A stretch of DNA of 64,000 nucleotides, taken from positions 681,795-745,794 of the forward strand of contig CAZXMM010000001.1 of assembly GCA_964641255.1 (NCBI GenBank), in the 5' to 3' direction. The position numbers were made by a program, and so were the translations under genes. The DNA is from an uncultured Gammaproteobacteria bacterium (GTDB lineage: Bacteria > Patescibacteriota > Microgenomatia > JAMCZE01). Position 1 is the stretch's first letter. Each line of letters opens with the position of its first letter. Of this stretch, positions 9,432-32,538 are shown piece after piece. Below the pieces are notes generated by a model. That model saw nothing but the letters and a program-made list of their open reading frames with translations. It ran no database searches and was not told the origin of the DNA.

Positions 9432-11321
9432 ATGTCAAAACCCGAAGTTAAAGAAGTAAAAATCACCAAGACAGCCAGATATCAACCTTCAGAGCGTGAG
9501 CAGGAGCTTCTGACTAAATGGAAAGCTAGATTCAAACGTGCCAAGGAGTTTCGGGATCCGTATCAAGCCAAATGGCTACGGATGTACAGACTTTATCGAG
9601 CCTATCAACACAAACAAAACTACGCTTACAACACCCGTCTCATGCCTCCGATCGCTTTTGAAATAGTCAAAACTGTTGTATCCAGGCTGGCCACGGCAAA
9701 ACGCAAAACAAGAGTCATCCCAAGAGAAAAAGCAGATATTCAATCGACATCCCTCGGATCTTGGGCCGATTTAGTGAATTATGACTTTGACATCATCGAG
9801 TTAGCAAAGAAGCTGCCCAACTGGATTGAGTCATCAGTTTTGTACGGGAACGGGATAGTTAAGCTTGCTTGGAAAATAATTAACAGAAAACGGTCAAACG
9901 GCTCAATAAAAACTATTTACGATGACCCCACCATGATTCTCTGTGACTTGTGGGATTTTCTACCTGCTCCGGAAACTGAAGACCTCCAGGAAGGATGTCC
10001 CTGGCTTATTCACCGTATTGTTAAACCAAAAGAAAAGATTACTAAAGAAGAAGAAAAACGGGGTGATAACAAAATCTACAAGAATCTTGAGTTTTGTGAG
10101 CCTAAAGTAGTTGAGGACTGGAAGAAAGAGCGCTACGAGATTAACACCAAGAAAATGTCCCAAATTGATGGCGATATCAAAAAAGCTGAAACGGGCGAGC
10201 AAAAAGTGCTTCAGGTCAAAAATGATCAGGAAAAACAACTGGAACTCTGGGAGTGCTGGGACTACGAAGAGGATCAGCTGATAGTGATCGCCAATGGTGA
10301 AGTAGTTATTCGCGATGACGAGAATCCTTATCTTGATGTTAACAACGGCCACATTTTTGTGGATCTTCCTGATATGTCACTCCTTTGGGAATTCTGGGCA
10401 ACCGGCCACGTTGAACCCGTTGAAAGTACAATCATGGAAATTTCTGACCTACGGAACCAAAGAATGGATGATGTGGTGTTAATGCTCGACCCAGTGGTAA
10501 AAATCCGCAAGGATACCGGCATTACCAAAAATGACATCATTTTCTCTCCAGGGGCAGTTTGGGAACTACGAAAAATGGATGACGTGGTGATTGAACGACC
10601 GCCAGACATTAGCTTAATGGGCGTCAACGAAGACAAGTTGCTCCGTGATGAAATCTCAAGAACTCTTGCCCTAGGAGAATACTTGCAGGGATTACCACAA
10701 TCATCCGGTGAGCCACTTGGCAAAGTAGCAATGCTGTTAGGTCAGAGCAATCTAAGACTAAGCATGAATGCCCAAAACATTTCAAATGCTCTAACCGTTG
10801 TAGCAAACATTCTTATTCAGCTTAACCGTGAATTTATCGGAGAAGACAAACTCTATCGCATTGTTGGCAATAGTGTCGACTTTAAGGAGTTCAAGTCTGA
10901 GGATAAGAAAATCCAGGTAGACGCGATTGTTGAAGTTGAGCCGGTCATCCCACCGGATAAGCAGGCCAGACTTAACCAGATATTGCTTCTTTATGACAAA
11001 TTCATAGCTCAGGATAAACCTGATCCAAATAGTGTGGCTGATGTAAAACGTTGGTTAGTCCGCAAGCGTGCTCTACAGAAAATGATTCTGGAGGAACTCG
11101 ACCTCGACCAGTATGTCGACATTCTCCTTGGACCGGAAGTAGCTAAAATTGAGGAAGAAACCGAAGAAGTATTACCAAAAGGGGCGCCGGTAGCCCCTGT
11201 AGCGCCTTTTGAGAGGGATTTACCACCTCAGCCGACTAGTTCACCATCCAAATCAACAAACAACAAGATTCGGCAGTTAATAGGTAAAATTCCGCTCCTT
11301 GGCAAGGCATTGAGTTCTTAG
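9432..11321 (+). CDS. Phage portal (head-tail connector), T7-like
   Basis: 629 aa. N-terminal RDPYQAKW..YRLYRAY and LVNYDFDIIELAKKLPNWIESSVLYGNGIVKL resemble T7 gp8 regions (RAPYETRA..., NYIESNSYRVTLFEALKQLVVAGNVLL), recalled from memory. Confidence 0.55.
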   Translation: MSKPEVKEVKITKTARYQPSEREQELLTKWKARFKRAKEFRDPYQAKWLRMYRLYRAYQHKQNYAYNTRLMPPIAFEIVKTVVSRLATAKRKTRVIPREKADIQSTSLGSWADLVNYDFDIIELAKKLPNWIESSVLYGNGIVKLAWKIINRKRSNGSIKTIYDDPTMILCDLWDFLPAPETEDLQEGCPWLIHRIVKPKEKITKEEEKRGDNKIYKNLEFCEPKVVEDWKKERYEINTKKMSQIDGDIKKAETGEQKVLQVKNDQEKQLELWECWDYEEDQLIVIANGEVVIRDDENPYLDVNNGHIFVDLPDMSLLWEFWATGHVEPVESTIMEISDLRNQRMDDVVLMLDPVVKIRKDTGITKNDIIFSPGAVWELRKMDDVVIERPPDISLMGVNEDKLLRDEISRTLALGEYLQGLPQSSGEPLGKVAMLLGQSNLRLSMNAQNISNALTVVANILIQLNREFIGEDKLYRIVGNSVDFKEFKSEDKKIQVDAIVEVEPVIPPDKQARLNQILLLYDKFIAQDKPDPNSVADVKRWLVRKRALQKMILEELDLDQYVDILLGPEVAKIEEETEEVLPKGAPVAPVAPFERDLPPQPTSSPSKSTNNKIRQLIGKIPLLGKALSS

Positions 11322-12200: not shown

Positions 12201-14420
12201 TTACTTTTGAATAGGTTCCGCGTTATTATCCGACGGTGCCTGTGGCTTGGGAATCTTTTTTAATGTTCTCGTATAAATCACCACTTTTGCATCCTTCATA
12301 AGTTTTGAGGAAAGCTGCTCGGAAAGCTGTGCGTGCTTCTCCTGAGTCAGACGTTCTTTAATAAATTCCTTCGAGTCTTCAAAGCTCAATTGTTCCGGCT
12401 CCGAACGGTCAAGGACTTCAACGATATAGATGTAGCCATTGGCCTCAAACGGCGTACCGATTTCTCCTTTGGGAATAGCCTGAACCTGCTCATGATATTG
12501 ATGTTTAACAATTTCTCCCATAAGATCCATTTCTTCCTCAACCCATTCTGTTACCTCGCCCCCCTTATCTTTGGTTTCTTCGTCTTCCGAATATTGCTTG
12601 GCAACAGAGGCAAAATCCTCTCCTTTTTTTAGTGGACCGGGAACGAGCTTTTTATATGCTTCGTTAGCTTTGTCGAAGGCTTTTTTATGCTCATCGTCGG
12701 TTGCGTTATCAGAGCCACCCGCACGGATGACAATCTGGCGGACTCTTGACTTAGCAGGTTTTATAAATTGTGATTTATTACGGTTGTAGTAATCCTCGAT
12801 TTCTTTATCTTCGATTTTAATTTTCTCATCGACTTCCTCCTGTTCAAGCATCTGAGCCAGGACTTTCAGGCGCATCTCATCTTTGCGCTCCTTTGTTTCA
12901 GTCTGGGATACCTGGCTTAAACTGTCTTCGTATAACAGCAGGCGCTCGATAATTTTCTCAACCAGTGCCTGCTTACCTTCAGTGCCGGCATATGAAGACA
13001 GAAACGAAAGCGGTAGTTCCTGATATTCTTCCCAGAATTCACCCAAAGTAAACCGTTTACCGTTGACGGTAAAGAGTGTCCTGTCGGCATTATCGGTATA
13101 GTATTTCTTTTCCGTCTCGATCAGGACTGCCGTTTGCACCTGTGAGCGGACTTCCTCAAAACTCTGCTGCCGTTCCGGCTGTTTGGAACTAAGTCTGGCA
13201 ATAACAAATGCGTCTTTGTCGGCAATAACATCGCTTATCTGCTCCGGATCCAGCCGGAAGATAGCTTCTTCATAACCAGGATCGTTTTCTCCTTTTGTCC
13301 TGGTTACTCCGGTCTGGGGAAGCGGAGAGCCGGTTATTTCCTGATACACCTGACCGAAGTCGCTTCCGGAGCGGATTTTGGATAAAGTCTGTTCGGCTTT
13401 TTCTTTAGCCTTCTTTTCATCAGTGCCTTTCGGAATGCGGATTTCGTAAACAACGGCTTGGGCTTTGACTAGATATTTATCTTTATTGGCATCATAGTAG
13501 TTACGCAGTTCCCAGTCGGCAGGGTCAGGAATAGCCAACACTGCCGGATCGCGGGTAATTGAGGCTCTATTTTTCAGGCCGGTAATGTAGTTCTGGACAA
13601 ACTGATCTTCCTTTTCGCTTTGCAGCTTCGTTTTTATTTCCTCACGTACGTCGGTCAGCGTTTTATCTCCGAAATCTTTTCTGTTGGCATCATAGTAGGC
13701 GCCGATATCACCCTCAGTTACTCCGAGTTGCCCTTTGTGCATCTGGGCATGAAGTTCATTCAGGTTTATTTCCTCAGTGATATGCTTCATCACATGGGAA
13801 AATTCTTTATCCTGGTCGGGTTTGCGGGTAGCCTGCCAGCGTTTGACGATTTCATCGGTGATCATTTCCTGGACGATCAGTGCATACCCTTGGGGAGACT
13901 TTAGCTGCTTTTGCGTTTCTTCGTCCTCAACAAGTGAAACCAGGTGTTTTTCAACATCTTCAATGGTGATTCTACCCCCGTCATATGCGGCAACGACGTC
14001 GGGAGCGGGCGGCCAGGGAGCAAAAATGTCTTCACGGAATCTGAAAACAAGGAAAGCGAGAACCACAATGACACCCAAAATAATTTTCTTCTTTTTAGAT
14101 AAGTGAATTTTGGGTAGAGGTAACCGTAATGGCTTACTTTCAGGCGGTTGCTCTCCGGCTTTTGTGGGTTCTATGGATTGTTCCGGATGAACTTCCTGAG
14201 GAGTAATTTCCTTCGGAATATCAACAACCTCCTTATCAAGTGTCTTTTTCCCGGATTGAATCCGCTCCGGTTTTTTTGGCAGAGGTTTCTGCTTCCGATC
14301 ACCACCGGAAAAACCCAGAGACTGCCGGATGTCAGTAAATACCTGACCCCAGCCCTCACCGGATTTGTCTTTAGCGGCTGCTTTCGGTTTGTGGTGGGAA
14401 GACATTGACTTTTGTTTCAT
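12201..14420 (-). CDS. Membrane-anchored periplasmic chaperone, PpiD/SurA-like (tentative)
   Basis: 739 aa, N-terminal TM helix (ILGVIVVLAFLVF), K/E-rich. Operon context with hflKC. Parvulin motif not clearly seen. Confidence 0.4.
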   Translation of the reverse strand: MKQKSMSSHHKPKAAAKDKSGEGWGQVFTDIRQSLGFSGGDRKQKPLPKKPERIQSGKKTLDKEVVDIPKEITPQEVHPEQSIEPTKAGEQPPESKPLRLPLPKIHLSKKKKIILGVIVVLAFLVFRFREDIFAPWPPAPDVVAAYDGGRITIEDVEKHLVSLVEDEETQKQLKSPQGYALIVQEMITDEIVKRWQATRKPDQDKEFSHVMKHITEEINLNELHAQMHKGQLGVTEGDIGAYYDANRKDFGDKTLTDVREEIKTKLQSEKEDQFVQNYITGLKNRASITRDPAVLAIPDPADWELRNYYDANKDKYLVKAQAVVYEIRIPKGTDEKKAKEKAEQTLSKIRSGSDFGQVYQEITGSPLPQTGVTRTKGENDPGYEEAIFRLDPEQISDVIADKDAFVIARLSSKQPERQQSFEEVRSQVQTAVLIETEKKYYTDNADRTLFTVNGKRFTLGEFWEEYQELPLSFLSSYAGTEGKQALVEKIIERLLLYEDSLSQVSQTETKERKDEMRLKVLAQMLEQEEVDEKIKIEDKEIEDYYNRNKSQFIKPAKSRVRQIVIRAGGSDNATDDEHKKAFDKANEAYKKLVPGPLKKGEDFASVAKQYSEDEETKDKGGEVTEWVEEEMDLMGEIVKHQYHEQVQAIPKGEIGTPFEANGYIYIVEVLDRSEPEQLSFEDSKEFIKERLTQEKHAQLSEQLSSKLMKDAKVVIYTRTLKKIPKPQAPSDNNAEPIQK

Positions 14421-15504
14421 TTCCTTCCAGTAATTTTAGATTAACCCGTTCTCCCGGTTTAACAATATACGTAACGATTCTGGGAAATATTTTCTCCATC
14501 CGTTCCAGGTACAGCCGGAAGCGAGTGACCTGCTCTCCGTAAATACTGCTGTTGGTTCTGTACTGCGTCAAAATCTCATTGAAGGCCACCGCTGAACCGC
14601 TGGCTTCATTGATTTGCGCAGTCGCTGAACTGCTGGCTTCGGTGATGAGCTTCTGCGCCTGACCACGGGCTTCCGGAATGACACTGTTTTTATACCCTTC
14701 GGCTTCATTGACAGTCTTGCTTTTATCCTCTCTAGCGCTTGAGACGTCACGGAACGCGTCAGCTACTTCGTCCGGCGGATAGGCCTTTTGAAAATTAACG
14801 CTGACCACAGCCAGACCGCTGTTATACCCGTCAAGCAGGGTCTGTGTCTCTTTCTGCAGCCGGTTCAAAACACTCTGGCGCTCCGAGGTAAGGATGTTAT
14901 CAACAGCTGTCTCTGCGCTCACTTTGGTCACTGCCGCCCGTACGGCATCCCGGACAATCTGATACGGCGCATAGTCAATATTAAACAAATAATCGGCGGG
15001 TTCCCTGATCTGGTACTGGACAATGACCTCGTAATCAACAATATTAGTGTCCCCGCTTAACACCTGCAATTTACCCGGTTGTTCGGGATGTTTGGGATGC
15101 TCCGGTTCGGGGCTCAGGAGGCCGACGCTTTCGCGTCTGACTTCGGAAACATTCACAATGGTTTCGCGGTCAACCGGCCACGGCAGACGATAATGCAGAC
15201 CTTCCGATACTTTGGGACTGACTACTTTGCCGAAACGGGTAACTACCGCCGCTTCTCCGGGTTTAACGATATAAATGCCGGAAAGAAAATAAACGGCCAC
15301 AATAATTTTGACAATATTCCCGGAAATATAGCGGGCATTGACGTGGGCAAAGGCCTGTTTGATGTCAGCCAGGGATGATGATCCGTCGGCTGACCGGATT
15401 TTGGCCATAACAGACTGAATCAACCGCACCAGTATACCGACAACCGTGAGTATGCGTTTGGTGATCTCTGCTAACAGTTGTTTTATTTTGTTCATTTGTT
15501 CCAT
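14371..15504 (-). CDS. hflK: HflK-like SPFH/band-7 protein
   Basis: TM helix then SPFH core (GEAAVVTRFGKV, DEVADAFRDVSSAREDK, YKNSVIPEARGQAQK). Confidence 0.75.
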   Translation of the reverse strand: MEQMNKIKQLLAEITKRILTVVGILVRLIQSVMAKIRSADGSSSLADIKQAFAHVNARYISGNIVKIIVAVYFLSGIYIVKPGEAAVVTRFGKVVSPKVSEGLHYRLPWPVDRETIVNVSEVRRESVGLLSPEPEHPKHPEQPGKLQVLSGDTNIVDYEVIVQYQIREPADYLFNIDYAPYQIVRDAVRAAVTKVSAETAVDNILTSERQSVLNRLQKETQTLLDGYNSGLAVVSVNFQKAYPPDEVADAFRDVSSAREDKSKTVNEAEGYKNSVIPEARGQAQKLITEASSSATAQINEASGSAVAFNEILTQYRTNSSIYGEQVTRFRLYLERMEKIFPRIVTYIVKPGERVNLKLLEGNETKVNVFPPQTESSR

Positions 15505-15568: not shown

Positions 15569-16501
15569 TTACGGATTGAGATATTTTAAGAGCTCTGAAT
15601 CTGAAGGAAGAATAAGCGTTGTGCCCTGATTTATGACCTTGTCGTATGACTCAAGCGTACGCAGGAACTGGTAAAATGCCGGATCCTTACCAAATGCCTG
15701 AGCATAAATCCGGATTGCCTGAGCCTCACCCTCTCCCTTAATCCGGTTTGATTCTTCCTGGGCTTTAGACAAAAGAGTGGTTTTCTCGGCATCTGCTTCG
15801 GCTCTGATCTTTGTTGCTTCTTCAGTACCCTCAGAGCGCAGCTGCCTGGCTATCTGCTGGCGTTCTGCGCGCATACGCTGAAATACGCTTTGTCTGTTTG
15901 CCTCAGGGAAGTTAAGCTGTTTGAGCCGCACATCGGCAACTTTAAAACCGTACGAGCGTGTACGCTCATCTGTTTGCTTGGTAAGACCCGCAAGCATTTC
16001 ATCCAGCTTCATCTGGCTTTGGTCGGTAGTGACCAGATTAGTCAACTCATACTGCGACAGTGCCACTCCGAGCTCGGACGTGAGAATATCGGATAGTCGT
16101 GATGATGCTCCCTGGGCATCTCTGACACTTTTGAAAAACTGTACCGGGTCATCTATCTGCCAGGTGGCATAGGCTTCTACTAAAATATTTTTCTTGTCCT
16201 TGGTCAGAAACTCCGTTTCGGTCAGATTATGGACCTGGATCCTTTTATCAAGTTTGATGAGATTTTGCAGCGGATCGGGAAGCTTGACATACAACCCCGG
16301 CTCTTTAATGGCGCGGACGGGACTGCCGAACTGTGAAACGATAGCGTATTGTGTCGCGTCTACCTGAAACGCAACCAAAGTTGAAAGAATCAGTAAAATT
16401 CCGACTCCTAAACCAATTAACATTTTCGGCTGACGCAGCATCTGCCAACTGATTCTGCTTCTTGCCTGATCTATGAATGATGATTGTGTTCTGTTTCTCA
16501 T
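15569..16501 (-). CDS. hflC: HflC-like SPFH protein
   Basis: Start moved to ATG at 16501 (GGAGGTG RBS, MRNRTQSS). The longer track ORF overlaps the upstream gene. YAIVSQFGSP and RIYAQAFGKDPAFYQFLRTLESY are HflC-like. Confidence 0.75.
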   Translation of the reverse strand: MRNRTQSSFIDQARSRISWQMLRQPKMLIGLGVGILLILSTLVAFQVDATQYAIVSQFGSPVRAIKEPGLYVKLPDPLQNLIKLDKRIQVHNLTETEFLTKDKKNILVEAYATWQIDDPVQFFKSVRDAQGASSRLSDILTSELGVALSQYELTNLVTTDQSQMKLDEMLAGLTKQTDERTRSYGFKVADVRLKQLNFPEANRQSVFQRMRAERQQIARQLRSEGTEEATKIRAEADAEKTTLLSKAQEESNRIKGEGEAQAIRIYAQAFGKDPAFYQFLRTLESYDKVINQGTTLILPSDSELLKYLNP

Positions 16502-16514
16502 AAATTCACCTCCT

Positions 16515-18068
16515 TTACGGCTGGGCAGTTTTTCCATTAGTAATCCACAAATCGGTGGAATTAGTTTCCACCCGCGGATCGAGAATGTATTTTTTAATGT
16601 TTGGCAATACTTTTTCCAGAGACTCAAGGTATAAGCGGGTACGGGTAACCTGGGGAGCATTCTGGTAGGCAGTGAGTTTTTTACTGAAACGTTCTGCTTC
16701 ACCGGTGGCAAGCGCGATCTTACTGGCTTTTTCCGCTTCTGCAGTGGTCACCTGTTTAGTAGCTTCTCCCCGGGCAACAGCGACTGTTTCGTTTTTATAC
16801 GCCAGGGCTTCATTCATATATGTGTTTTTGTCTTCTCTAGCACTGGCCACATCCAAAAATGCGTCAGCTACTTCGCCCGGCGGAGTCACCGAAAGCAGTT
16901 GAACATTGGTTACTTTTATTCCGGTGTTATGTTCTTTGAGTAAATTTTGCGTCCCGCTCGTAGTTTGTGCCAAGATCGCACTTCTTGAAGCGGTTAACAA
17001 ATCGTCGACACCTCTTTGAGCAACCGCGGCTCTAAACGCTGTTTCCGTCTCTTTGGCAAGTAAATTTTCCGGATTTTGGATGCTAAAAAGATAATCGGCG
17101 GGATTCGTAATCGTATACTGAACTGTTAATTTGGTATTAATAAGGTTCGTGTCACCGGTAAGCACTAAAGATGCGTCCGTCTGAACCTGGCGCACTTCGT
17201 CCACATTGACTCTGGCTATGGTATCAACCAGAGGAACCCGGGCATGCAGCCCTGGCCCGAACGAACCGACAACTTTTCCGAATCTGGAAACAACGGCCTG
17301 TTCGCCCATGGGAACGGTATAGACACCGGAAAGCAGGATAAAAAGAACCGCAATTCCTCCGAGGTACGCGAGCATCCGCTTATTATGCAAAAAGGCCAGA
17401 TGATGGTGTCCTTCAATATGATTGGGTAATGCCTGTTTGGTCCGCAGGGCATGAATGGCTGACTCGGCAATTTCCCAGCCGGAAGTAACGATCAGAACAA
17501 TCACAAATATCGCGGCCAGTTTATCCAGAGCAGGAAACCCAACGGCAGCAGCAATAAGCCCTACAACGACAAGAACCGAAGCATACAGATCCATCCGCGA
17601 ATGATATCCGCTGGCAATAAGGGAAAGGGAATTGGTGGCACGACCAACGAACTCTTTGTACCTTGCAGTGAAGTAGGTAATGGCTATAGTTAAAAATGCC
17701 CCGATGGTCACCAGCCAGATATTTCTGAGATCAGGTGTTTCTGAGGCGCCGGTTACTTCCCGGAAAATATCCAGCGCCGAGAAAAACATCAGACCGGAGA
17801 CGATCAGGGCAACGATATTTTCAATTGTTCCCGCCTGCAACCGACGTCTGGCTTCCCAGGCCGCAGATAAAAGCCCTAAAAGTACAAAGACGGAAACAAA
17901 GACATCCCCGACAGAATGCCAGGCACTGGCTTTAAGTGATAAACTACCCGATGAGGAAGCGAGGAAAAACTTGAGAAGGACGAGAATTACATTAGCAACA
18001 ATGGTGACGACAATGGTTTTTTCTTTCCGGTTCATAGTTAGGTAATATGAAATCTCTGGGCAGCACAA
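16515..18068 (-). CDS. Fusion: cation-diffusion-facilitator-like TM domain plus HflK-like SPFH domain
   Basis: N-terminal 6-TM region with CDF-like HxxxD motifs (AWHSVGD, SGYHSRMD). C-terminal GEQAVVSRFGKV...ADAFLDVASAREDK...YKNETVAVARGEATK is HflK-like. Confidence 0.6.
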   Translation of the reverse strand: MCCPEISYYLTMNRKEKTIVVTIVANVILVLLKFFLASSSGSLSLKASAWHSVGDVFVSVFVLLGLLSAAWEARRRLQAGTIENIVALIVSGLMFFSALDIFREVTGASETPDLRNIWLVTIGAFLTIAITYFTARYKEFVGRATNSLSLIASGYHSRMDLYASVLVVVGLIAAAVGFPALDKLAAIFVIVLIVTSGWEIAESAIHALRTKQALPNHIEGHHHLAFLHNKRMLAYLGGIAVLFILLSGVYTVPMGEQAVVSRFGKVVGSFGPGLHARVPLVDTIARVNVDEVRQVQTDASLVLTGDTNLINTKLTVQYTITNPADYLFSIQNPENLLAKETETAFRAAVAQRGVDDLLTASRSAILAQTTSGTQNLLKEHNTGIKVTNVQLLSVTPPGEVADAFLDVASAREDKNTYMNEALAYKNETVAVARGEATKQVTTAEAEKASKIALATGEAERFSKKLTAYQNAPQVTRTRLYLESLEKVLPNIKKYILDPRVETNSTDLWITNGKTAQP

Positions 18069-18083
18069 TAACTTATTATTTTA

Positions 18084-18096
18084 CTACAAATTGTAG
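18084..18096. promoter_or_regulatory. BlaI/MecI-family operator dyad CTACA-AAT-TGTAG
   Basis: Perfect 5+3+5 palindrome, identical 15-mer (TACTACAAATTGTAG) to the site at 31328..31342. Lies between the dsbA-like gene (18139) and the CDF-hflK operon start (18068). Confidence 0.45.
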
Positions 18097-18138
18097 GAGA
18101 TTTATCGGCTGAATTCAAGAGGTTGAAGTATCAGCAGT

Positions 18139-19071
18139 TTACCAAAATTTAAAACCCTTAAGTATCCGTTCATAAACCCGGTAGGGTTTGGGGCCGACTA
18201 AACCTTTACCGTTTATTAACACCAGCGGCGTGCCGTAGATATTGGTTTTCTCAAGCTCAATCCGTTGCGCAACGACGGCCGCCTGGGTTTGGGGAGACTG
18301 ACTGCAGGCATTGATTGCTGCCACATCATACCCCAACTCGCCAAGGATTTTTTCTACAAATTCTTTTTTGGAAATATCTTCCTTGGAGTTGGCAAAGAGT
18401 CTATCGTTTAACTGCCAGTATTTATTCTGATCCTGGTTATACGCACAGTAGCCGATCGGGAGGAGATACAGCATTTCCTCTTTGATGGGATAATGGGCAA
18501 AAGTGTAGTTAACCTGATTTTCAGAAATAAGTTTCTGGATAAGCGGGTATGCTTTTCTGGTATAGTCGCAGCTGTAACAACCAATGAGCACTACCGAATC
18601 CTTGACCCCTTTATCAACAGTTGGGAAAAGACTTAGATCAACGTTGGCAAGAGTCACCTTGCTCTCATCTCCAGCTCCGTCTACACAACTGCCGCCGGTC
18701 TGAGAAACTTTATTGTTTTCTCCTTTAGGATCCAGAGCGCAAAAGCCCGTTTTATTAAGTCCGTTACAGCTGCCGTACATGTAATAGTTGTACAATCCTT
18801 TGCCTGTCCAGAAAATGCTCGCAACGGTCGTGATAAACAAGATCCAGGAAAGCAACTCAAAGTGTCTGTTGACTATCCTGGCTGCAACAGCAGAACGGGA
18901 AAGTAGTGTCCCTACCAACTGTGCTTTCATCTTTTCTTTAAACCCTGTGGTGCAGGGACGAAGTGTGATCCGCCTAAAAACGCAATCAAAAGCCTCCCTG
19001 GCCAACCGCCGGTGAGAGGCGCTGAATATGCTGATAATTGATAAAGCGATAAACGCTAAAATACAAAACAT
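18139..19071 (-). CDS. Membrane-anchored thioredoxin-fold protein, DsbA-like
   Basis: Two N-terminal TM helices, CYSC (CxxC) motif, C-terminal YGTPLVLINGK cis-Pro loop region. Confidence 0.5.
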   Translation of the reverse strand: MFCILAFIALSIISIFSASHRRLAREAFDCVFRRITLRPCTTGFKEKMKAQLVGTLLSRSAVAARIVNRHFELLSWILFITTVASIFWTGKGLYNYYMYGSCNGLNKTGFCALDPKGENNKVSQTGGSCVDGAGDESKVTLANVDLSLFPTVDKGVKDSVVLIGCYSCDYTRKAYPLIQKLISENQVNYTFAHYPIKEEMLYLLPIGYCAYNQDQNKYWQLNDRLFANSKEDISKKEFVEKILGELGYDVAAINACSQSPQTQAAVVAQRIELEKTNIYGTPLVLINGKGLVGPKPYRVYERILKGFKFW

Positions 19072-19075: not shown

Positions 19076-20272
19076 TCAGAGAATGCTTATTACCTTCCGT
19101 AATTCCTTAACAAAAAGTTCAGCTTCTTCAAGCGTGTTATAAAAATAAACGGATGCCCGTACTGAACCGGGAATCTTTCTGTCCGCAAACCATGAATGGA
19201 CACAATGCTGACCCGAGCGAACCATAATCTTTGAGGAGGAATCAAGCATCAAAGCTATCTGATGGTGGTCAATGCCCGGAATATAAAAAGAAATAATCCC
19301 GCTTCTTTCTTTCGGGTCAGAAGGGCCCAGAATAACCAGGTTAGGAATTTTCTGCAGTTCCTCCGTTATGTAGCTATTCAGTGCATATTCCTGTTTCTGA
19401 ATTTCAGCAATGCCCACGCTTTCAAGATATGAAACGGCTTCGCCTAATCCGATAATGCCGGCATAATCCTGCAGCCCTGCCTCAAATTTTTCCGGCGGCG
19501 GAAGAAACTCGCACGATTCATACGTTGACGAAGAAACAGTATCACCCCCGACCAAAAACGGTGACAGTGTTTCCAAAAGTTTGTATTTACCATATAACAC
19601 CCCAGTGCCCGAAGGTCCCAGTATCTTATGACCGGAAAATGCCAGAAAATCAACATCCAGCTTCTGCACGCCAATTACCTGATGCGGAACCGCCTGGGCA
19701 GCATCAAACAACACGAGAGCTCCGTGTTGGTGAGCCAGACGGACAATTTCGTCAGCCGGAATCGTCACTCCGTCCAGGTTGGATGTCATGCCCAAGCTCA
19801 CCAGTTTTACGCCGTTACCTAACGCCTGTGTGTAGGCGTCCAGGTCAAACGTGTTATCGTCTCTCGATCGCACAATCCGGTGAATAATCCCTGCTTTATT
19901 GTGCAGCATCTGCCAGGGAACAAGGTTTGAGTTATGCTCTTTATCGGAAGTCAGGACTACGTCACCTTCTTTGAGATTTAAAGTGTTTGCTACGAGATTA
20001 ATTCCTTCGGTGGTATTTCTGGTAAAAACGATTTCTTCTTTCCGTTTGGCACGCAGGAATTTGGCAACTCTCGCCCGCGCATCATCACACTTTTGGGTAA
20101 CCTTGGCAGCCAAATGGTGGTTGCTTCTTCCTGCACAAGCAGAATACTCACGATAGTATTCTGTGACTGCATCAATCACGGATTGAGGACGCAGGCTCTG
20201 GCAGGCATTGTCAAAATAGACGCCCTTTTCTGAAAGCACCGGAAAATCGTGTCTGATTTTTGTTATATCCAT
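19076..20272 (-). CDS. sufS: Cysteine desulfurase, class V aminotransferase, group II (SufS/CsdA-like)
   Basis: PLP-lysine motif FSGHKILGPSGTGVLYG. Group-II signature RSGQHCVHSW. Confidence 0.8.
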   Translation of the reverse strand: MDITKIRHDFPVLSEKGVYFDNACQSLRPQSVIDAVTEYYREYSACAGRSNHHLAAKVTQKCDDARARVAKFLRAKRKEEIVFTRNTTEGINLVANTLNLKEGDVVLTSDKEHNSNLVPWQMLHNKAGIIHRIVRSRDDNTFDLDAYTQALGNGVKLVSLGMTSNLDGVTIPADEIVRLAHQHGALVLFDAAQAVPHQVIGVQKLDVDFLAFSGHKILGPSGTGVLYGKYKLLETLSPFLVGGDTVSSSTYESCEFLPPPEKFEAGLQDYAGIIGLGEAVSYLESVGIAEIQKQEYALNSYITEELQKIPNLVILGPSDPKERSGIISFYIPGIDHHQIALMLDSSSKIMVRSGQHCVHSWFADRKIPGSVRASVYFYNTLEEAELFVKELRKVISIL

Positions 20273-20274: not shown

Positions 20275-22179
20275 TTAGTTCTTTTGAGTATCGAAATTAA
20301 ATAATCGTAAACTGTTGGCCACAACCAGAACGGTAACCCCAACGTCAGCAAAAATGGCTAAGGCTAAACTACTCTTTCCTACCAGGGCCAGTGCCAGGAA
20401 TATTGCTTTAACCGCAATTGCCGCGCCGGTATTAATGCGGATCGTACTGCCCGAGACTCTGCCTAGTTTCACTAAGAAAGGAATGAGTCCGAGATTATTA
20501 TTCATGAGAGCAATATCGGCATTCTCGACTGCGACTTCTGAACCGATCGCTCCCATGGCGATACCGACAGAAGCGGTTGAGAGTGACGGCGCGTCATTGA
20601 CCCCATCACCGACCATGGCCACGTCTTTGTGTTTATTAACGAGGTTTTTCAATTGAATGACTTTCTCATCAGGCAAAAGCTTGGCGTGAACTTCATCAAT
20701 ACCGACTTCTTTGGCGACGTAGCCGGCAGCTGACGCATTGTCGCCGGTAAGAATAGCGGTCTTAACTTTCAGCTTATGCAATTCCCTGACAGCACCAGAA
20801 CTTTCCGGCCTGATCTCATCGACAATTCCTAAAATACCTTTGAGCTTTTTGTCATCGCTGATGATAATGGCGGTTTTCCCTTCTTTCTCAAACCGTTCCA
20901 CAATATCAACAGCCCGTTTATCTACCTTGTGTTCCTCCATCACAAACTGCAGCGTCCCTATACAGTGGTGTTTATCAACACAGACCAGACACTCACCGGA
21001 AATACCTTTGCCCAGGATTGCCTTGAAGTTAGCATATTCGTGATCTTTGATATCGGGGAAACTTTTTGAACTCTCAACAATACTTCTGGCAATCGGGTGT
21101 TCTGAGAAGGCCTCTGCTCCGGCCACACAGGCCAAAAGTTCACCTTTGGAATACCCGTTCAGGGGAATAACGTCAGAAACGATAGGCTCGCCTTTCGTGA
21201 GCGTTCTGGTTTTGTCAAAGGCAACAGCCTTAATTCTGCCCATTTCCTCCAGAAACTGACCGCCTTTAATCAGGATTCCGCGTTTGGTGGCGTTGCCAAT
21301 AGCAGAAAAGATTGTGATCGGGGTGGAAATAACCAGCGCGCATGGACAGGCAATCAGAAGTATGGTTAGGCTTTGGGCAAACCACGGGGTAAACGGCTGA
21401 CGTAAAAACAGTACAGGTATTACAGTCAGTAAAGCAGCAAAAACTAAGACCCCCGGTGTGTAGTAAGATGCGAATTTTTCGATAAACTTAGCGGCCTGGG
21501 ATTTCCGTTCTGCCGCCTGAAAGGTCAGATCCACGATTTTAGCCAGCGTCGTATCCTTGGAGGTTTTGGTGACTTTGATTTCCAGGTATCCCTGACTGTT
21601 TAAAGTTCCGGCAAATACCAATTCGCCCTCGTATTTATTTTTTGGCAGCGGCTCTCCGGTGATACTGCTTTCATCAACCAGGGATTCACCTTTTACTACC
21701 ACTCCGTCCAGTGGAATATAATCACCCGGTTTGACCACCACAATATCGTTGACCGTTATTTTTTCTATCGGCGTTTTAGTTTCCTGCCCCTTAAGTAACG
21801 CCGTTTTGGGAGCTTTCTCAACCAACTCTTCCAGGGCATTCTGGCTTCTTTCGATACCGAATTCTTCCAGAGCTTCACTAACGGCAAACAGAACGATAAT
21901 AATGACGGCTTCTTCCAGTTCGCCCAGGTAGACTGCCCCAAAGGTGGCTACAGTCATTAAGAGGTTAATATTGGAGAACCTGAGTCTGACCAGACTTTGC
22001 AGACCACCTACAATGACATCGCGGCCGAAAAAGAAAATGATGGCTGCAAACAGAGGATACTCGACAAATTTGGGCAGATGAACCGAAAAAAGTGATAGGA
22101 TTTCAAGAGGAATAATGAGAAGGAGAGTGGCTGCTAGCCGTCTGAATTTGGTTTCTTTGAGAATCTCTGATATAAGCAT
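20275..22179 (-). CDS. P1B-type heavy-metal (probably Cu+) translocating ATPase, no N-terminal metal-binding domain
   Basis: CPCALVISTP (CPC), phosphorylation motif present as DKTRTLT, TGDN, GDGVNDAP. Confidence 0.75.
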   Translation of the reverse strand: MLISEILKETKFRRLAATLLLIIPLEILSLFSVHLPKFVEYPLFAAIIFFFGRDVIVGGLQSLVRLRFSNINLLMTVATFGAVYLGELEEAVIIIVLFAVSEALEEFGIERSQNALEELVEKAPKTALLKGQETKTPIEKITVNDIVVVKPGDYIPLDGVVVKGESLVDESSITGEPLPKNKYEGELVFAGTLNSQGYLEIKVTKTSKDTTLAKIVDLTFQAAERKSQAAKFIEKFASYYTPGVLVFAALLTVIPVLFLRQPFTPWFAQSLTILLIACPCALVISTPITIFSAIGNATKRGILIKGGQFLEEMGRIKAVAFDKTRTLTKGEPIVSDVIPLNGYSKGELLACVAGAEAFSEHPIARSIVESSKSFPDIKDHEYANFKAILGKGISGECLVCVDKHHCIGTLQFVMEEHKVDKRAVDIVERFEKEGKTAIIISDDKKLKGILGIVDEIRPESSGAVRELHKLKVKTAILTGDNASAAGYVAKEVGIDEVHAKLLPDEKVIQLKNLVNKHKDVAMVGDGVNDAPSLSTASVGIAMGAIGSEVAVENADIALMNNNLGLIPFLVKLGRVSGSTIRINTGAAIAVKAIFLALALVGKSSLALAIFADVGVTVLVVANSLRLFNFDTQKN

Positions 22180-26667: not shown

Positions 26668-27795
26668 TTAATCACAATCTGTTCCTAATCCTCCGACACA
26701 GTTTTCTGTCGGCGGTTTACCCCGCTCGGGACATTTTTCAGAATAAATACACGCTCTGTCCGTTACTTCCGAAAGCTGTTTGCCTGAGATTTCGGCAGCC
26801 GCAGTATTAAAGCTCATAACAATTCTGTCCAGGTCCTTAAACTCGTACTCCCTCCAATTACCGGTTTGTTTATCTCCGTTTACATACCAACTGACTTCGG
26901 ATGGCAAGTTTGCCTTCCAGGAGTCAATAAGCTGACCCAGGGTGACGCCGGTTTTATGCTTATGGATTACTTCTTCAGTGTCTTTGTGCGAATGAATATC
27001 GGGGTCTTTTTCAAAATATTCCGGGCGATCCTGAAGCAGAACTCTTTTCCCATTCACATATAAAGCAAGGTCTGCGTGTTCATGAACTTTTTCACCAGTT
27101 GATTGCCCGGAGGGCTTCGGAGCTTTAAGAATGGCGGCATTGATAAAGGTTTTAAAGTCCTCAGGAGTTTTGGGATTAGGAATTTTGTCACCGTTGAGAA
27201 AGAAGGTCGGCGTACCGGAAACGCCTAGCCTGGTACCCGAGTTTTTATCCCGTTCAACCCTGTCTTTTACCTCTTTTGAAGCCACATCCTTTTTAAATTG
27301 GTCCATATTAAGTCCGATTGCTTGGGCATAACCTTCGAATATTTTCGGATCGGCGGCTGGTTTCTCGCCCCAATTTTTCTGTTCATTAAATAGCTTGTCA
27401 TGCATCTCCCAGTATTTACCCTGCCTGGCAGCGGCTTCAACGGCAAGGGCGGCCGGCAGACCGTTTTTGTGTCCGGGGAGCGGGAAATAGCGATTGACAA
27501 AACGGACATCGGTCTTAAACTCCTCTGCCAGTTGTTTTATGAGAGGGTAATATGCACCGCAGGCCTCACATTCAAAATCCAGATACTCAACCAGAGTTAC
27601 AGAAGCTTCCTTGTTACCTTTAATATAATCGTCAGATACTACTTCAAGTAACTTTTTCTGCTCATCGGAAACGGGCGTGGAGTTATTCGTGGCGGAGGAT
27701 GGTGACGAACCCATTTTGCTGGCAAAAAATACTCCGCCCACCAAAACAACAACTGTAACGAGCATTATTCCTAATACAAATTTATCCTTAAACAT
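26668..27795 (-). CDS. Membrane-anchored DsbA-like thioredoxin with C-terminal Cys-rich extension
   Basis: CEAC active site, GTPTFFLNG cis-Pro region. About 140-aa C-terminal extension ending CVGGLGTDCD. Confidence 0.6.
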   Translation of the reverse strand: MFKDKFVLGIMLVTVVVLVGGVFFASKMGSSPSSATNNSTPVSDEQKKLLEVVSDDYIKGNKEASVTLVEYLDFECEACGAYYPLIKQLAEEFKTDVRFVNRYFPLPGHKNGLPAALAVEAAARQGKYWEMHDKLFNEQKNWGEKPAADPKIFEGYAQAIGLNMDQFKKDVASKEVKDRVERDKNSGTRLGVSGTPTFFLNGDKIPNPKTPEDFKTFINAAILKAPKPSGQSTGEKVHEHADLALYVNGKRVLLQDRPEYFEKDPDIHSHKDTEEVIHKHKTGVTLGQLIDSWKANLPSEVSWYVNGDKQTGNWREYEFKDLDRIVMSFNTAAAEISGKQLSEVTDRACIYSEKCPERGKPPTENCVGGLGTDCD

Positions 27796-28065: not shown

Positions 28066-29100
28066 TCAGATGACGTTAATGTTTCCTTTAAACATGCCCA
28101 TGCTGCACATAAAGGCAAGCGGTCCCGGTGTTGTCGGTGCTGTAAATTCAATTACGTCAGACTGGCCGATCGGCACAACCCTTTGCAGTCCCAGCTTGGG
28201 AATCGTAAGCGACTGAGCACAGCCACCACCGCCCTGGTTAACAATCTTAAATTTTATTTTAGAACCAGCTCTGACATTGACAATTCCCGGATCCGTACTG
28301 TAGCCGTTTCTGGTAATAAAAATCGTCGCCTCCTTAACCGCCGTGGTGGTAGCTCCGGCCACTTTCCCTTCATCACAAAAACTAATCGTGCAGTTAATAC
28401 CCGTTAAAATACCATCAAGGGTAAAACTGCTGCCGCTTAGCGCTAACGCGCCGTTAAAGTTATACACGGCGACTAAAATAATTGCTCCGGCAGCAACCCG
28501 ATTAAACGTTCCGCTTAAAGTACTACCAAGCTTTCGGGCGGCGTAGCCGAGAAGAAAAAATAAAGGAGACGTCCCCAGCATAAAGACAAACATGGTGGTA
28601 GCTCCGGCAAGAGCAGATCCGGTTGAGATGGCATATGCCATCATCGCCTGCGTCGCTCCGCAGGGTATAAACACAGTCATGGCCCCGAGAAGTGCCGGAC
28701 CAAAAACAGCCTTACTCTTTGACTGGTTGCGCACCAATCGGGTGAGAAATTTTGGTGGTTGAATGACAAAGTAGCGGAATATCGGGTGAACCTGAAGTAA
28801 ATTCAGCGCCGTGCCGACCATAAATACAACCGCTGCAAATTGCAGAAAAACGCGGGCAGAAAGTGAAAGTTGGAACACTGATCCGAGTGATCCTAATAGT
28901 AATCCAAGCAGGGTGTATGCAATCAGCCGTGTGAACAGAAATGAAACTATCGGGAGAAGGTGACCAAACCGCTTGGCTTCCTCCTCAAGTTTATTCTCTG
29001 TCTGTTGGGCAACTGAGGTAGCGAGAAGTCCTCCCTGAACTGCCAGACAGGTAAGCCCGCCTGCAAATAATCCGGTGACAAATATTGTAGTTATATCCAT
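28066..29100 (-). CDS. DsbD_2/CcdA-like thiol-disulfide membrane protein fused to C-terminal cupredoxin-like domain
   Basis: TM region with GGLTC and IPCG cysteines. The C-terminal FMCSMGMFKGNINVI resembles the type-1 copper loop C-x-x-H-x-x-M with Met substitutions. Confidence 0.45.
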   Translation of the reverse strand: MDITTIFVTGLFAGGLTCLAVQGGLLATSVAQQTENKLEEEAKRFGHLLPIVSFLFTRLIAYTLLGLLLGSLGSVFQLSLSARVFLQFAAVVFMVGTALNLLQVHPIFRYFVIQPPKFLTRLVRNQSKSKAVFGPALLGAMTVFIPCGATQAMMAYAISTGSALAGATTMFVFMLGTSPLFFLLGYAARKLGSTLSGTFNRVAAGAIILVAVYNFNGALALSGSSFTLDGILTGINCTISFCDEGKVAGATTTAVKEATIFITRNGYSTDPGIVNVRAGSKIKFKIVNQGGGGCAQSLTIPKLGLQRVVPIGQSDVIEFTAPTTPGPLAFMCSMGMFKGNINVI

Positions 29101-30960: not shown

Positions 30961-31324
30961 ATTCGTGTAAGAGCTTTAGGAAATACTCTTTCTTTTCCTT
31001 CGGTAAACGGTCAATAGACTGGGCAAATGAAGCAAGCGCCGCATCCCCGAACGTCCCGAAAAATCTGTCCAACAATGTTCTGGCCATTTTCCGGCTGAAT
31101 TCCTCTTTAGTCTGCTTTGGAACAAAAACAACGGTGAATGCAGAAGTATCTTTATTTACTAACCCCTTATCGTGCAACCGTTCTAAAATCGTGGCTATTG
31201 TCGTATAAGCAAGATTCTTTGTTTTGTTTGTCTCTTCCACCACTTCGCGGATGGTACATTTTCCCAATGCCCATACAACATCCATAACTTCCTGTTCGAG
31301 CTCGCTTAAGGTTTTAGTCTTCAT
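30944..31324 (-). CDS. BlaI/MecI/CopY-family winged-helix repressor
   Basis: LSELEQEVMDVVWALGKCTIREVVE...AYTTIATILERLHDKGLV. No C-terminal CxC metal motif, so not CopY-type. Confidence 0.8.
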   Translation of the reverse strand: MKTKTLSELEQEVMDVVWALGKCTIREVVEETNKTKNLAYTTIATILERLHDKGLVNKDTSAFTVVFVPKQTKEEFSRKMARTLLDRFFGTFGDAALASFAQSIDRLPKEKKEYFLKLLHEYDKNK

Positions 31325-31939: not shown

Positions 31940-31948
31940 AGGAAAACT

Positions 31949-32275: not shown

Positions 32276-32279
32276 AACT

Positions 32280-32534: not shown

Positions 32535-32538
32535 ACAT

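Follow-up and report, generated by a model that had tools for sequence, protein, structure and literature searches.

The window, by which we mean the whole 64,000-nucleotide stretch of DNA that was analyzed, encodes a protein in which the transmembrane domain of a cation diffusion facilitator (CDF) runs, within one reading frame, into HflK. This fusion protein crosses the membrane seven times, with the N-terminus inside and the C-terminus outside, and its SPFH domain and coiled coil lie on the outer side. Together with HflC and a second HflK it makes up an accessory, horizontally mobile unit found among metal-resistance islands. We consider it probable, though well short of assured, that this unit serves in envelope and metal stress and tethers an active CDF exporter, lacking the C-terminal domain (CTD) of its family, to an HflK/C-type cage. 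Below, K1 is the CDF-HflK fusion and K2 is the second, plain HflK.

Table 1. Features of the fusion gene, its module and its upstream neighbors in the window, in order of position
Feature	Position	Strand	Support or remark
Membrane-anchored PPIase, two parvulin domains (PpiD/PrsA-like), module gene 4	12201..14420	(-)	Rotamase_2/Rotamase_3 matches
Second, unfused hflK paralog (K2), 377 aa	14371..15504	(-)	TIGR01933 229 bits
hflC, 310 aa from ATG 16501	15569..16501	(-)	TIGR01932 211 bits (cutoff 134)
hflC Shine-Dalgarno sequence, AAGGAGGTG	16507..16515	(-)	Shares last base of fusion stop codon
CDF-HflK fusion gene (K1)	16515..18035	(-)	506 aa from ATG 18035; TAA stop 16515-16517
HflK SPFH domain (aa 238-384), coiled-coil helices (387-476) and C-terminal tail	16518..17327	(-)	Outer membrane face; TIGR01933 240 bits
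Seventh TM helix, aa 219-236, native HflK membrane anchor	17328..17381	(-)	AF2 helix 219-236
Cytoplasmic linker, aa 200-218, basic, His-rich (KQALPNHIEGHHHLAFLHN)	17382..17438	(-)	Replaces CDF C-terminal domain position
CDF transmembrane domain, aa 1-199	17439..18035	(-)	Pfam/NCBIfam, AF2 model, YiiP fold match
TM5 HxxxD (H145, D149), transport site A, second half	17589..17603	(-)	Aligned to YiiP H155/D159
TM2 HxxxD (H40, D44), transport site A, first half	17904..17918	(-)	Aligned to YiiP D47/D51
Membrane-anchored DsbA-like thioredoxin-fold protein, immediately upstream	18139..19071	(-)	Thioredoxin_4/DSBA matches
P1B-2 heavy-metal P-type ATPase (Zn/Cd/Pb class), without N-terminal HMA domain	20275..22179	(-)	TIGR01512 503 bits (cutoff 313)

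Domain structure of the fusion protein

The longest form of the open reading frame (16515..18068, reverse strand) begins at TTG 18068 and encodes 517 aa, 11 more than the form that begins at ATG 18035. The ATG is the likely start, because in CP006914.1, a complete WWE3 genome, the ortholog begins at the equivalent position and because the N-terminal sequence MNRKE is kept across the fusion family (R3 is invariant, and K4 and E5 are conserved in at least 90%).

The initial annotation had proposed a CDF-type N-terminus of six helices with HxxxD motifs, joined to a complete HflK-like band-7 domain, and profile searches bear out both halves, with Cation_efflux and Band_7 each above their curated cutoffs. 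In the 517-aa numbering, Pfam Cation_efflux (PF01545) covers aa 20-208, or positions 2-197 of the 198 in the profile (E 4e-25; 89 bits, cutoff 26.6), and Band_7 covers aa 251-426 (E 2e-24). The NCBIfam models for HflK (TIGR01933; 240 bits, cutoff 159) and for CDF proteins (TIGR01297; 93 bits, cutoff 82.35) both match as well. An AF2 model of the fusion (pLDDT 85) has six transmembrane helices, a linker, TM7, the SPFH domain and the coiled coil in that order. The loop charges follow the positive-inside rule, with 10 K+R in the predicted cytoplasmic loops versus 1 in the outer loops, which places the SPFH domain on the outer side, as in HflK. The protein therefore combines the six-helix membrane domain and above-cutoff family profile of a CDF with the features that define HflK, namely an N-in membrane helix that leads to an SPFH domain and coiled coil outside the membrane, again with the profile above cutoff.

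The six helices of the CDF half span residues 3-29, 32-60, 62-95, 106-133, 137-164 and 169-199 in the 506-aa numbering. A fold search matched this domain to the transmembrane domain of YiiP (8f6k_B) with an rmsd of 4.4 A over 205 columns; similarity to YiiP in sequence is weak (E 1.6e-4). Transport site A is intact. In an alignment of 119 family sequences, which share 43-92% identity with the window protein, H40, D44 and H145 are each present in 119/119 and D149 in 111/119, and the other CDF hallmarks are conserved to the same degree or nearly so (E72 in 118/119, D171 in 119/119), as are G/S/A positions. Both halves are under purifying selection, with dN/dS at 0.026 for the CDF half versus 0.039 for the HflK half, and across phyla conservation of the CDF half equals or exceeds that of the HflK half. 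That the N-terminal domain is a generic transmembrane anchor can be rejected from its match to the profile, from site A being invariant and from the dN/dS value.

The CTD of CDF proteins is thought to trigger or regulate family members and to dimerize them. Whether it is missing here was a question raised by the initial annotation, and it is indeed gone, along with site C: a Pfam search of the fusion gave no match to ZT_dimer (PF16916, the CDF C-terminal domain), and TM6 is separated from the HflK helix, TM7, by only some 20 residues. The linker that takes its place has low pLDDT at residues 206-211 in the AF2 model. The region aa 197-220 contains 4 K+R and 5 His, and H212 is found in 76 of the 119 family sequences. 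Site B of YiiP (D70/H73/H77) corresponds to gap/R/A in the fusion, and the interlock Lys K79 to T70. The closest stand-alone relatives of the CDF half are CDFs that carry a ZT_dimer domain and a Nitro_FeMo-Co domain. The fusion would represent a CDF that works, or that is at the least kept under strong selection, without the regulating and dimerizing CTD.

Alignment of the fusion to E. coli HflK begins within the TM7 helix. The HflK half matches E. coli HflK in a phmmer search (7vhp; E 9e-52) and in a Foldseek search (7vhq_E; E 1e-21, 36% identity).

Gene order, metal context and mobility of the module

The initial annotation was also right that a separate hflC and a second hflK follow the fusion, both being recognized by their NCBIfam models (Table 1); the partner gene expected of an HflK thus adjoins the fusion in the window. 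The overlap of the hflC Shine-Dalgarno sequence with the fusion stop codon suggests that the two genes are translationally coupled. K2 and the HflK half of the fusion are 45% identical, and each has clade-specific signatures. This arrangement is widely kept: hflC comes directly after the fusion in 72/73 loci, the order fusion-HflC-K2 is preserved in 64/65, and the HflC and K2 genes overlap by 4 bp in loci L006, L008, L009 and L012. The PPIase gene follows K2 in 38 of 50 loci. DegP/HtrA occupies its slot in L053 and L064, and in divergent loci the fourth gene is a different one (Rieske/cyt b, ECF sigma or LolA-like). A promoter and terminator scan of the region from 11.3 to 19.2 kb yielded counts not above those of shuffled sequence. 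Upstream of the fusion, TTGAAT-17-TACAAT (18118-18090) is a candidate promoter only.

The link between the module and metal is strongly supported by context, both by the islands in many phyla and by the Zn/Cd-class ATPase in the window. In 28/37 loci a P1B ATPase is encoded within 10 kb of the module, and in 18/37 DsbA-like genes are. Other recurring neighbors in related loci are DsbA/DsbB, SCO1, PCuAC, MerR, CsoR, ArsR, Nramp and multicopper oxidase. The P1B-2 ATPase of the window is about 2 kb upstream of the fusion. A response regulator-histidine kinase pair (RR-HK) stands immediately upstream on the same strand in 25 of 65 loci; an RR-HK pair of heavy-metal type is absent from the window itself. 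The upstream pairs of the four loci that were typed fall into two lineages, and none scores above the cutoffs of the heavy-metal two-component models TIGR01386/TIGR01387. For L011 and L013 these models are nevertheless the best or near-best matches (HK 244 and 232, cutoff 292; RR 216 and 200, cutoff 279), while the pairs of L009 and L012 are nearest to EnvZ/OmpR and CpxA. The comparison is suggestive of heavy-metal sensing by the upstream pair in two of the four loci.

The architecture, which had been taken to be uncommon, proved not to be so: it occurs in hundreds of metagenomic loci from many phyla. Among the matches listed, full-length fusions make up all 120 of 120 clusters at 90% identity and 72 of the best 150 representatives at 50% identity, and relatives of the fusion are encoded on 521 metagenome stretches. 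Named hosts include CPR, Chloroflexota, Alphaproteobacteria and Spirochaetota, among others. Cultured carriers are Kouleothrix aurantiaca and Aquibium oceanicum B7, the latter with the module on a conjugative plasmid. HflC of the WWE3-like window is 65-67% identical to that of loci labeled Saccharibacteria, Spirochaetae and Anderseniella, and transposases or integrases are found near the module in some loci. Only one contig in IMG/VR carries the module, which is therefore not typical of phages. The metal island in the window is flanked by phage-like genes.

All annotation sources label the fusion simply as "HflK" ("FtsH protease activity modulator HflK"), and hundreds of proteins under this label are in fact two-domain transporter-scaffold proteins encoded in a module of 3-4 genes. 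We found no prior description of an HflK-CDF fusion in the literature searched, which covered only a minority of subscription journals.

Possible functions of the module

The model of the module that we favor is as follows. The fusion would be a divalent-metal/H+ exporter of the CDF family, minus the cytoplasmic regulatory and dimerization domain, whose TM6 is connected, by a short cytoplasmic linker rich in His, to the membrane helix native to HflK. An SPFH ring or cage of HflK/C type would be assembled from the fusion, HflC and K2, with K1 and K2 presumably mixed in it, and metal exporters would thereby be held in the membrane patch that the cage organizes. The module usually comes with a membrane-anchored PPIase chaperone, sometimes with DegP/HtrA, and often with a two-component sensor upstream, and it may be induced by metal. 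Its proposed role would be to clear the cytoplasm of surplus Zn2+-type metal and at the same time, under metal or envelope stress, to support the folding and quality control of proteins that are exported or reside in the membrane, and it would probably draw on the host's own FtsH.

The near-invariant site A and the very low dN/dS of the CDF half would be explained by an active exporter no less well than by a sensor. Counting against an exporter are the absent CTD, the lack of conservation at site B of YiiP and at the interlock Lys, and the homodimeric state of canonical CDFs (PMC10617992). A class of CDFs that lacks the CTD does exist, its members being stand-alone proteins whose N-terminal tail, which chelates metal, has been suggested as a substitute (PMC8341793), so loss of the CTD by itself does not imply loss of transport. 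The fusion differs from that class in having only about 2 residues at its N-terminus and in having its C-terminus joined to an SPFH scaffold.

As to the metal, the cues diverge: the HD-HD quartet points to Zn and MamB, as the top-scoring model, to Fe, while both Zn/Cd and Cu genes are found among the neighbors. Site A does not by itself determine metal selectivity in CDFs (PMC8341793), and Zn2+, Cd2+, Co2+ and Fe2+ are inseparable on present evidence. That many neighbors are copper genes fits poorly with the zinc-suggesting HD-HD site and is a point against the favored model.

Two alternatives would deprive the fusion of any metal function or of its existence. An artefact that joins a CDF gene to a neighboring hflK has nothing in its favor except the unusual architecture, and its probability is negligible. 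Errors of assembly, frameshift or gene calling are excluded by the recurrence of one unbroken reading frame: the complete genome CP006914.1 has it, a RefSeq plasmid has it (WP_072608301.1), and so do 89 of 95 independent loci, the other 6 being truncated at contig ends or below tblastn thresholds. Furthermore, the CTD is cleanly absent and the junction is conserved, and the identical unbroken architecture in more than 100 independent protein clusters argues that the fusion is not a product of chance or frameshift. The CDF half might also be a degenerate relic that merely adds membrane mass or a surface for oligomerization, as the loss of the CTD, site B and interlock Lys and the weak similarity to YiiP could indicate. 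We regard this as very improbable, given a site A quartet that is near-invariant across so diverse an alignment, a dN/dS below that of the HflK half, a full-length Pfam match and a consistent metal-island context.

The remaining alternatives keep a role for metal and turn largely on FtsH. One, which follows the initial annotation, is that the CDF domain is a sensor rather than a pump. On binding cytoplasmic metal it would change conformation, TM6, the linker and TM7 would relay this change to the HflK ring, and the cage would open or close, tuning FtsH proteolysis of membrane proteins to the metal load, with net transport incidental or lost. The losses from the CDF half could mean that the normal transport cycle is gone, the short, direct connection of TM6 to TM7 suits mechanical coupling, the partly conserved linker H212 could form a sensing site, and HflK/C cages do open and close (9cz2, 9paw; PMC12048511). 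We nonetheless think a sensor rather improbable. The binding quartet would be kept either way, but the whole transmembrane domain, including E72 and D171, is conserved at very low dN/dS; the islands already hold dedicated sensors (two-component pairs, MerR, CsoR and ArsR); and no link to FtsH was found. Another alternative is a chamber that is independent of FtsH. A self-contained cage of K1, HflC and K2 on the outer face of the membrane would receive, within its lumen or next to it, metal released by the CDFs, to be sequestered locally or used in the metalation and folding of newly exported proteins that PPIase or DegP handles. The module moves between phyla without an ftsH gene, the partner conserved with it acts in folding or quality control outside the cytoplasm (PPIase in most loci, DegP in 2), the neighbors DsbA/DsbB, SCO1 and PCuAC act on exported metallo- or disulfide proteins, and CDFs export metal toward the side on which the cage lies. 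A further point in favor is that other SPFH cages hold channel or transporter clients (stomatin with aquaporin-1, 9zd2; the flotillin-rhodopsin operon, PMC10308929). On the other side, both HflK paralogs and HflC score at equivalog level as HflK/HflC, which to our knowledge is the partner of FtsH wherever it has been studied. Such a chamber is unlikely in our estimation, if less so than a sensor. Its strictest form, a self-contained, FtsH-free SPFH cage of fusion, HflC and K2 ringed by CDFs that pump metal into or beside the lumen, we would put among the outside chances; if true, it would give the first example from nature of an SPFH cage equipped with its own transporter and would define what such a cage contains.

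The preferred reading, a tethered exporter that probably calls on the host's FtsH, has the location of ftsH against it. The gene is absent from the 64-kb window and was not found within 8-10 kb of the module in ten loci with Pfam or RefSeq annotation. It is not adjacent to hflK/hflC in E. coli either. A statement in PMC12048511, citing Qiao 2022, names HflK Arg191 as an FtsH contact, a number that does not agree with the E. coli HflK sequence used here, in which residue 191 is Ala. The equivalent of R193 is invariant in the fusion and Thr in K2, and the equivalent of R185 has the reverse pattern. These reciprocal Arg patterns and the mismatched numbering of the published contact make the comparison of FtsH-contact residues ambiguous. 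Also counting against the preferred reading are the two lineages and below-cutoff scores of the upstream RR-HK pairs and the differing fourth gene of divergent loci.

Relation to known CDF and SPFH systems

The fusion shares with YiiP/FieF, CzcD/ZitB and ZnT8 the six-helix fold, site A in TM2 and TM5, the Glu at the start of TM3 and the Asp at the start of TM6. Its site A is of the HD-HD type, as in ZnT8, rather than the DD-HD type of YiiP (PMC8341793), in which the residues are D47/D51/H155/D159 (PMC10617992). Unlike the YiiP-type CDFs, it has no CTD or site C, no site B and no interlock Lys, and its C-terminus runs on into HflK. As for MamB/MamM, MamB NF033616 is the best-scoring named CDF equivalog model for the fusion, at 90 bits. 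Membership in that group is excluded by the cutoff of 350, by the missing CTD and by the absence of mam genes from the window.

On the scaffold side, the C-terminal 280 residues resemble the subunits of the E. coli HflK/HflC-FtsH cage (PDB 7VHP, 7WI3, 9CZ2), with 36-38% identity and the same TM/SPFH/coiled-coil fold, and the adjoining hflC gene, in the fusion locus apparently translationally coupled, is likewise shared. E. coli HflK begins with a cytoplasmic N-terminal tail of ~78 residues, whereas the fusion has the six-helix transporter domain there. The fusion operon also differs in having two HflK paralogs per HflC plus a PPIase, and in being accessory and mobile.

Stomatin with aquaporin-1 (9zd2) and the flotillin-associated rhodopsin operon (PMC10308929) likewise combine an SPFH oligomer with a polytopic transport protein, the bacterial pairing being known from a conserved operon. 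In those systems the partners are separate polypeptides, whereas the fusion links the transporter covalently to the SPFH subunit. Both the stoichiometry and the position of the client are fixed in this way, which should suit study by cryo-EM and genetics. A widespread fusion of transporter and HflK argues that SPFH cages organize transport proteins. The PDB fold search returned SPFH cages throughout (HflK/C, stomatin, prohibitin, flotillin and erlin), with release dates of 2022-2026.

Architecture and conservation of the fusion protein

Translation of the CDF-HflK fusion gene likely begins at the ATG at 18035, giving a protein of 506 aa, because the complete genome of candidate division WWE3 bacterium RAAC2_WWE3_1 has an ortholog with this start and because the N-terminus (MNRKE) is conserved family-wide. 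Profile searches identified the N-terminal half as a CDF domain (Pfam Cation_efflux, profile positions 2-197 of 198, E 4e-25; NCBIfam superfamily model TIGR01297, 93 bits against a cutoff of 82), followed C-terminally by Band_7 (E 2e-24) within a half that matches the HflK equivalog TIGR01933 (240 bits against a cutoff of 159). The initial annotation, which had described a CDF domain joined to an HflK domain and followed by a separate hflC and a second hflK, was thus correct, since both halves are confirmed by profile and the two downstream genes score above their equivalog cutoffs. The CDF C-terminal domain, whose possible absence it had raised, is indeed missing, with no ZT_dimer match in the fusion by Pfam profile search; this apart, both halves fall clearly within known families.

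Coordinates of features in the window, in the fusion protein and at other fusion loci
Feature	Location	Coordinates	Strand	Remark
Fusion ORF	window	16515-18068	minus	517 aa counting from TTG
hflC	window	15569-16501	minus	start ATG 16501; above equivalog cutoff
Second hflK (K2)	window	14371-15504	minus	above equivalog cutoff
Position matching extra gene of L001	window	18036-18138		only ~100 bp
SufS-like cysteine desulfurase	window	19076-20272	minus	between Zn/Cd ATPase and DsbA-like gene
DsbA-like gene	window	26668-27795		adjoins DsbD_2-cupredoxin fusion
DsbD_2-cupredoxin fusion	window	28066-29100	minus
DsbA-like gene	window	29121-29900		adjoins DsbD_2-cupredoxin fusion
BlaR1/Penicillinase_R pair	window	29956-31324	minus	upstream end of island
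Metal/redox island	window	12.2-31.3 kb	minus	~19 kb
Phage-like ORF, upstream	window	9432-11321	plus
Phage-like genes, downstream	window	31541-48333	plus
End of homology to RAAC2_WWE3_1	window	12039
Possible DISARM-like cluster	window	1386-9017	minus
Six CDF helices	fusion protein	aa 3-29, 32-60, 62-95, 106-133, 137-164, 169-199		AlphaFold2
Low-confidence stretch of short linker	fusion protein	aa 206-211		AlphaFold2, low confidence here
Seventh membrane helix	fusion protein	aa 219-236		AlphaFold2
SPFH domain	fusion protein	aa 238-384		AlphaFold2
Long coiled-coil helices	fusion protein	aa 387-476		AlphaFold2
Extra 255-aa gene	L001 (WWE3 reference genome)	7137-7904	minus	between DsbA-like gene and fusion
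DegP/HtrA in PPIase slot	L053	13673-15121
DegP/HtrA in PPIase slot	L064	5293-6771
Apparently split hflC/hflK2/PPIase	L014	3278-7130		several short ORFs

An AlphaFold2 model built on 54 family members was confident (mean pLDDT 85.2). Its top Foldseek match in the PDB was E. coli HflK (7vhq_E, E 1e-21, 36% identity), with further HflK matches to 9cz2 and 7wi3, and the N-terminal half resembled the transmembrane domain of YiiP (8f6k_B, rmsd 4.4 A over 205 columns). The distribution of Lys and Arg, with 10 on the N-terminus, loops 2-3 and 4-5 and the linker and 1 on the other loops, points by the positive-inside rule to an N-in, C-out protein of seven helices. Both parents demand this topology, since the chain of a CDF leaves TM6 on the cytoplasmic side and that of HflK enters its single helix from the cytoplasmic side. 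The CDF transmembrane domain in effect takes the place of the cytoplasmic N-terminal tail of HflK, and HflK takes the place of the CDF C-terminal domain.

The HxxxD-type motifs noticed initially fall on a known transport site: H40, D44, H145 and D149 of the fusion align with D47, D51, H155 and D159 of Shewanella YiiP, the four ligands of site A (PMC10617992). The quartet is HD-HD, as in ZnT8, whereas that of YiiP is DD-HD (PMC8341793). Among 119 fusion proteins, 43-92% identical to the query, the first three residues are invariant (119/119 each) and D149 is found in 111; the fusions also retain two family-wide residues, a Glu where TM3 begins (E72, 118/119) and an Asp where TM6 begins (D171, 119/119). 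Both halves are under purifying selection, with dN/dS between the window and the WWE3 genome of 0.026 for the CDF half, 0.045 for the linker and TM7 and 0.039 for the HflK half, and in comparisons between phyla the conservation of the CDF half equals or exceeds that of the HflK half. The CDF half therefore retains its transport site and core and has lost every known regulatory or dimer-locking element, since the site B loop of YiiP (D70, H73, H77) is matched by a gap, Arg and Ala, and the interlock Lys K79 by Thr70. The linker is His-rich in the window protein (HIEGHHH) and only partly conserved (H212 in 76/119). The dS of the fusion gene, comparing window 16515-18035 with positions 8001-9521 of L001, the WWE3 locus, is 0.49 in the CDF half and 1.84 in the HflK half, a sharp difference, suggesting that a breakpoint of recombination between the two strains lies close to where the domains join.

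Distribution and synteny of the module

The initial annotation suggested that this architecture might be uncommon, a view that the searches do not support. A word-indexed search of 5.8 billion proteins returned 380 matches to the fusion at E <= 1e-10, and among the matches listed all 120 clusters carried both Pfam domains; 118 of these were 480-640 aa long and covered 98-100% of the query, the shorter P0005 and P0040 covering 89% and 80%. With the CDF half as query in an exhaustive HMMER search, 72 of the top 150 representatives at 50% identity had an HflK-like C-terminal half. In a metagenome scan, at least 521 of the 600 candidate stretches listed encode relatives, down to ~31% identity. The named sources include Microgenomates/WWE3, Kouleothrix aurantiaca, Caldilineaceae and other Chloroflexi, Entotheonellia, Alphaproteobacteria (Oceanicaulis) and Thermodesulfobacteriota, though taxon labels of metagenome bins may be wrong, one 88%-identical copy being labelled 'Gammaproteobacteria'. 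By identity (93% at the protein level, ~86.5% for nucleotides over 13 kb) the genome closest to the window is CP006914.1, which makes the source of the window a related WWE3 (CPR) bacterium. A cultured carrier is Aquibium oceanicum B7, which encodes the fusion (WP_072608301.1, annotated 'FtsH protease activity modulator HflK') on a 166-kb conjugative plasmid. The only IMG/VR contig with the fusion, the putatively viral IMGVR_UViG_2751185592_000002, has by ORF sizes the layout RR-HK-fusion-HflC-HflK2-PPIase-P-type ATPase.

These proteins are already in public databases, and every one listed bears the plain source name 'HflK'. No description of the CDF-HflK combination or of the K1-HflC-K2(-PPIase/DegP) module, where K1 is the HflK half of the fusion, was found in the literature searched, which left out most subscription journals and does not prove absence. 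The nearest non-fused relatives of the CDF half are ordinary CDFs with ZT_dimer, often followed by Nitro_FeMo-Co. Among P0124, P0153, P0158, P0178, P0190 and P0226, near relatives with unusual architectures, P0124 joins a CDF transmembrane domain to a rhodanese domain and lacks ZT_dimer, and there are proteins with CDF, ZT_dimer and Nitro_FeMo-Co (NifX/NifB-like) domains.

Neighbors were classified by tblastn over 95 loci, with our own reference set and thresholds. HflC directly follows the fusion in 72/73 loci with sufficient flank, and the order fusion, HflC, K2 holds in 64/65. In the window, the hflC Shine-Dalgarno sequence (AAGGAGGTG) overlaps the stop codon of the fusion; the HflC and K2 genes overlap by 4 bp in several loci. 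K1 and K2 are paralogs of long standing: in the window they share 45% identity with one another and ~37% each with E. coli HflK, and their group-specific signatures persist in eight loci of different phyla. The fourth gene encodes a double-parvulin, membrane-anchored PPIase in 38/50 loci, and one of the other 12 has a frameshifted PPIase. Two divergent loci have DegP/HtrA (Trypsin_2 plus two PDZ) directly after K2, and the slot otherwise holds an ECF sigma factor (L049), Rieske/cytochrome b (L040-L042), a LolA-like protein, a response regulator or an Fe-S protein. The short ORFs of L014 and L029, which belong to one lineage, may stem from frameshifts, from errors of assembly or from an alternative genetic code. 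The product of the extra L001 gene is undecaprenyl-diphosphatase-like by motif.

An OmpR-family regulator and HisKA kinase lie directly upstream of the fusion, on the same strand, in 25/65 loci; of four pairs compared with NCBIfam models, two were nearest the CopRS/CzcRS heavy-metal subfamily and two EnvZ/OmpR-CpxA, none reaching a curated cutoff. Within 10 kb, the 37 loci with full flanks contain a P1B heavy-metal ATPase (28), a DsbA-like protein (18), SCO1 (12), PCuAC (10), a separate full-length CDF (7) and MerR (7). Annotated loci also carry CsoR, ArsR, Nramp, NicO, CopD, multicopper oxidase, DsbB, transposases and integrases. No ftsH (Peptidase_M41) was found in the annotated module loci or within the 64-kb window.

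Possible roles of the module

The most economical reading is an active, tethered exporter in a mobile K1-HflC-K2 module. The fusion would export a divalent metal of the Zn2+ type, and K1, HflC and K2 would build an HflK/HflC-type assembly that holds it. The three genes, joined by a factor for folding or quality control outside the cytoplasm, would serve metal-homeostasis islands as a mobile accessory and under stress tie the efflux of metal to proteostasis of the envelope and membrane. The data establish the domain architecture and topology, the integrity and invariance of the transport site, purifying selection, and the synteny, genomic context and mobility of the module; transport, the metal, the cage and its composition, a response to metal and any part played by FtsH are presumed. 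Published work supports the general frame only: HflK/C encloses FtsH and has ties to the quality control associated with YidC/Sec (PMC7618853, PMC12048511), and CDFs are homodimers that exchange metal for H+, with transport regulated by the C-terminal domain (PMC10617992, PMC3962391). The closest functional parallels are SPFH assemblies with a channel or pump as client: stomatin with aquaporin-1 (9zd2, from the fold search) and the operon of the flotillin-associated rhodopsin (PMC10308929). In both, unlike the fusion, the partner is a separate protein.

The conservation data disfavor a CDF half reduced to a degenerate anchor. The CDF half may instead be a sensor gating the cage, but against this the entire transmembrane domain is conserved and the islands already carry dedicated sensors. 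An FtsH-independent chamber for metal sequestration or metalation has its appeal, given that the module passes from phylum to phylum with an extracytoplasmic folding or protease partner (PPIase in 38 of the 50 loci, DegP/HtrA in two) and without ftsH. The fusion gives natural and genetically tractable access to the question of what SPFH cages organize. It also shows a CDF maintained under strong selection in the absence of the regulatory domain.

The island within the window

The module belongs to a 19-kb run of minus-strand genes that also encodes a Zn/Cd-class P1B-2 ATPase (TIGR01512, 503 bits against 313), a SufS-like cysteine desulfurase, three DsbA-like proteins, a fusion of a DsbD_2 membrane thiol-reductant transporter domain to a C-terminal cupredoxin-like domain, and a BlaR1/BlaI-like pair. 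The desulfurase scored 431 bits against a SufS cutoff of 475 and, in its catalytic part, 387 bits with the encapsulin family 2A cargo cysteine desulfurase model (cutoff 800). The last pair consists of a BlaR1/M56-M48 membrane peptidase and a Penicillinase_R (BlaI/MecI/CopY family) repressor. It may regulate the island, since CopY-type repressors are copper-responsive in some bacteria.

Phage-like genes lie on both sides, so that head genes of a prophage, or of what remains of one, appear to flank the island. The upstream ORF is portal/adaptor-like (phrog_332, E 1e-13; SU10 portal 25.8 bits, below cutoff), and the downstream genes encode an SU10-type major capsid protein (E 3e-44), an SU10 adaptor, a tail-fibre protein, an amidase and a 1437-aa phrog_9854 protein. 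The possible DISARM-like defence cluster includes an 852-aa protein with a DrmE C-terminal domain (E 2e-16), a NERD plus ResIII/UvrD-like helicase and a 1113-aa DEAD/Helicase_C protein.
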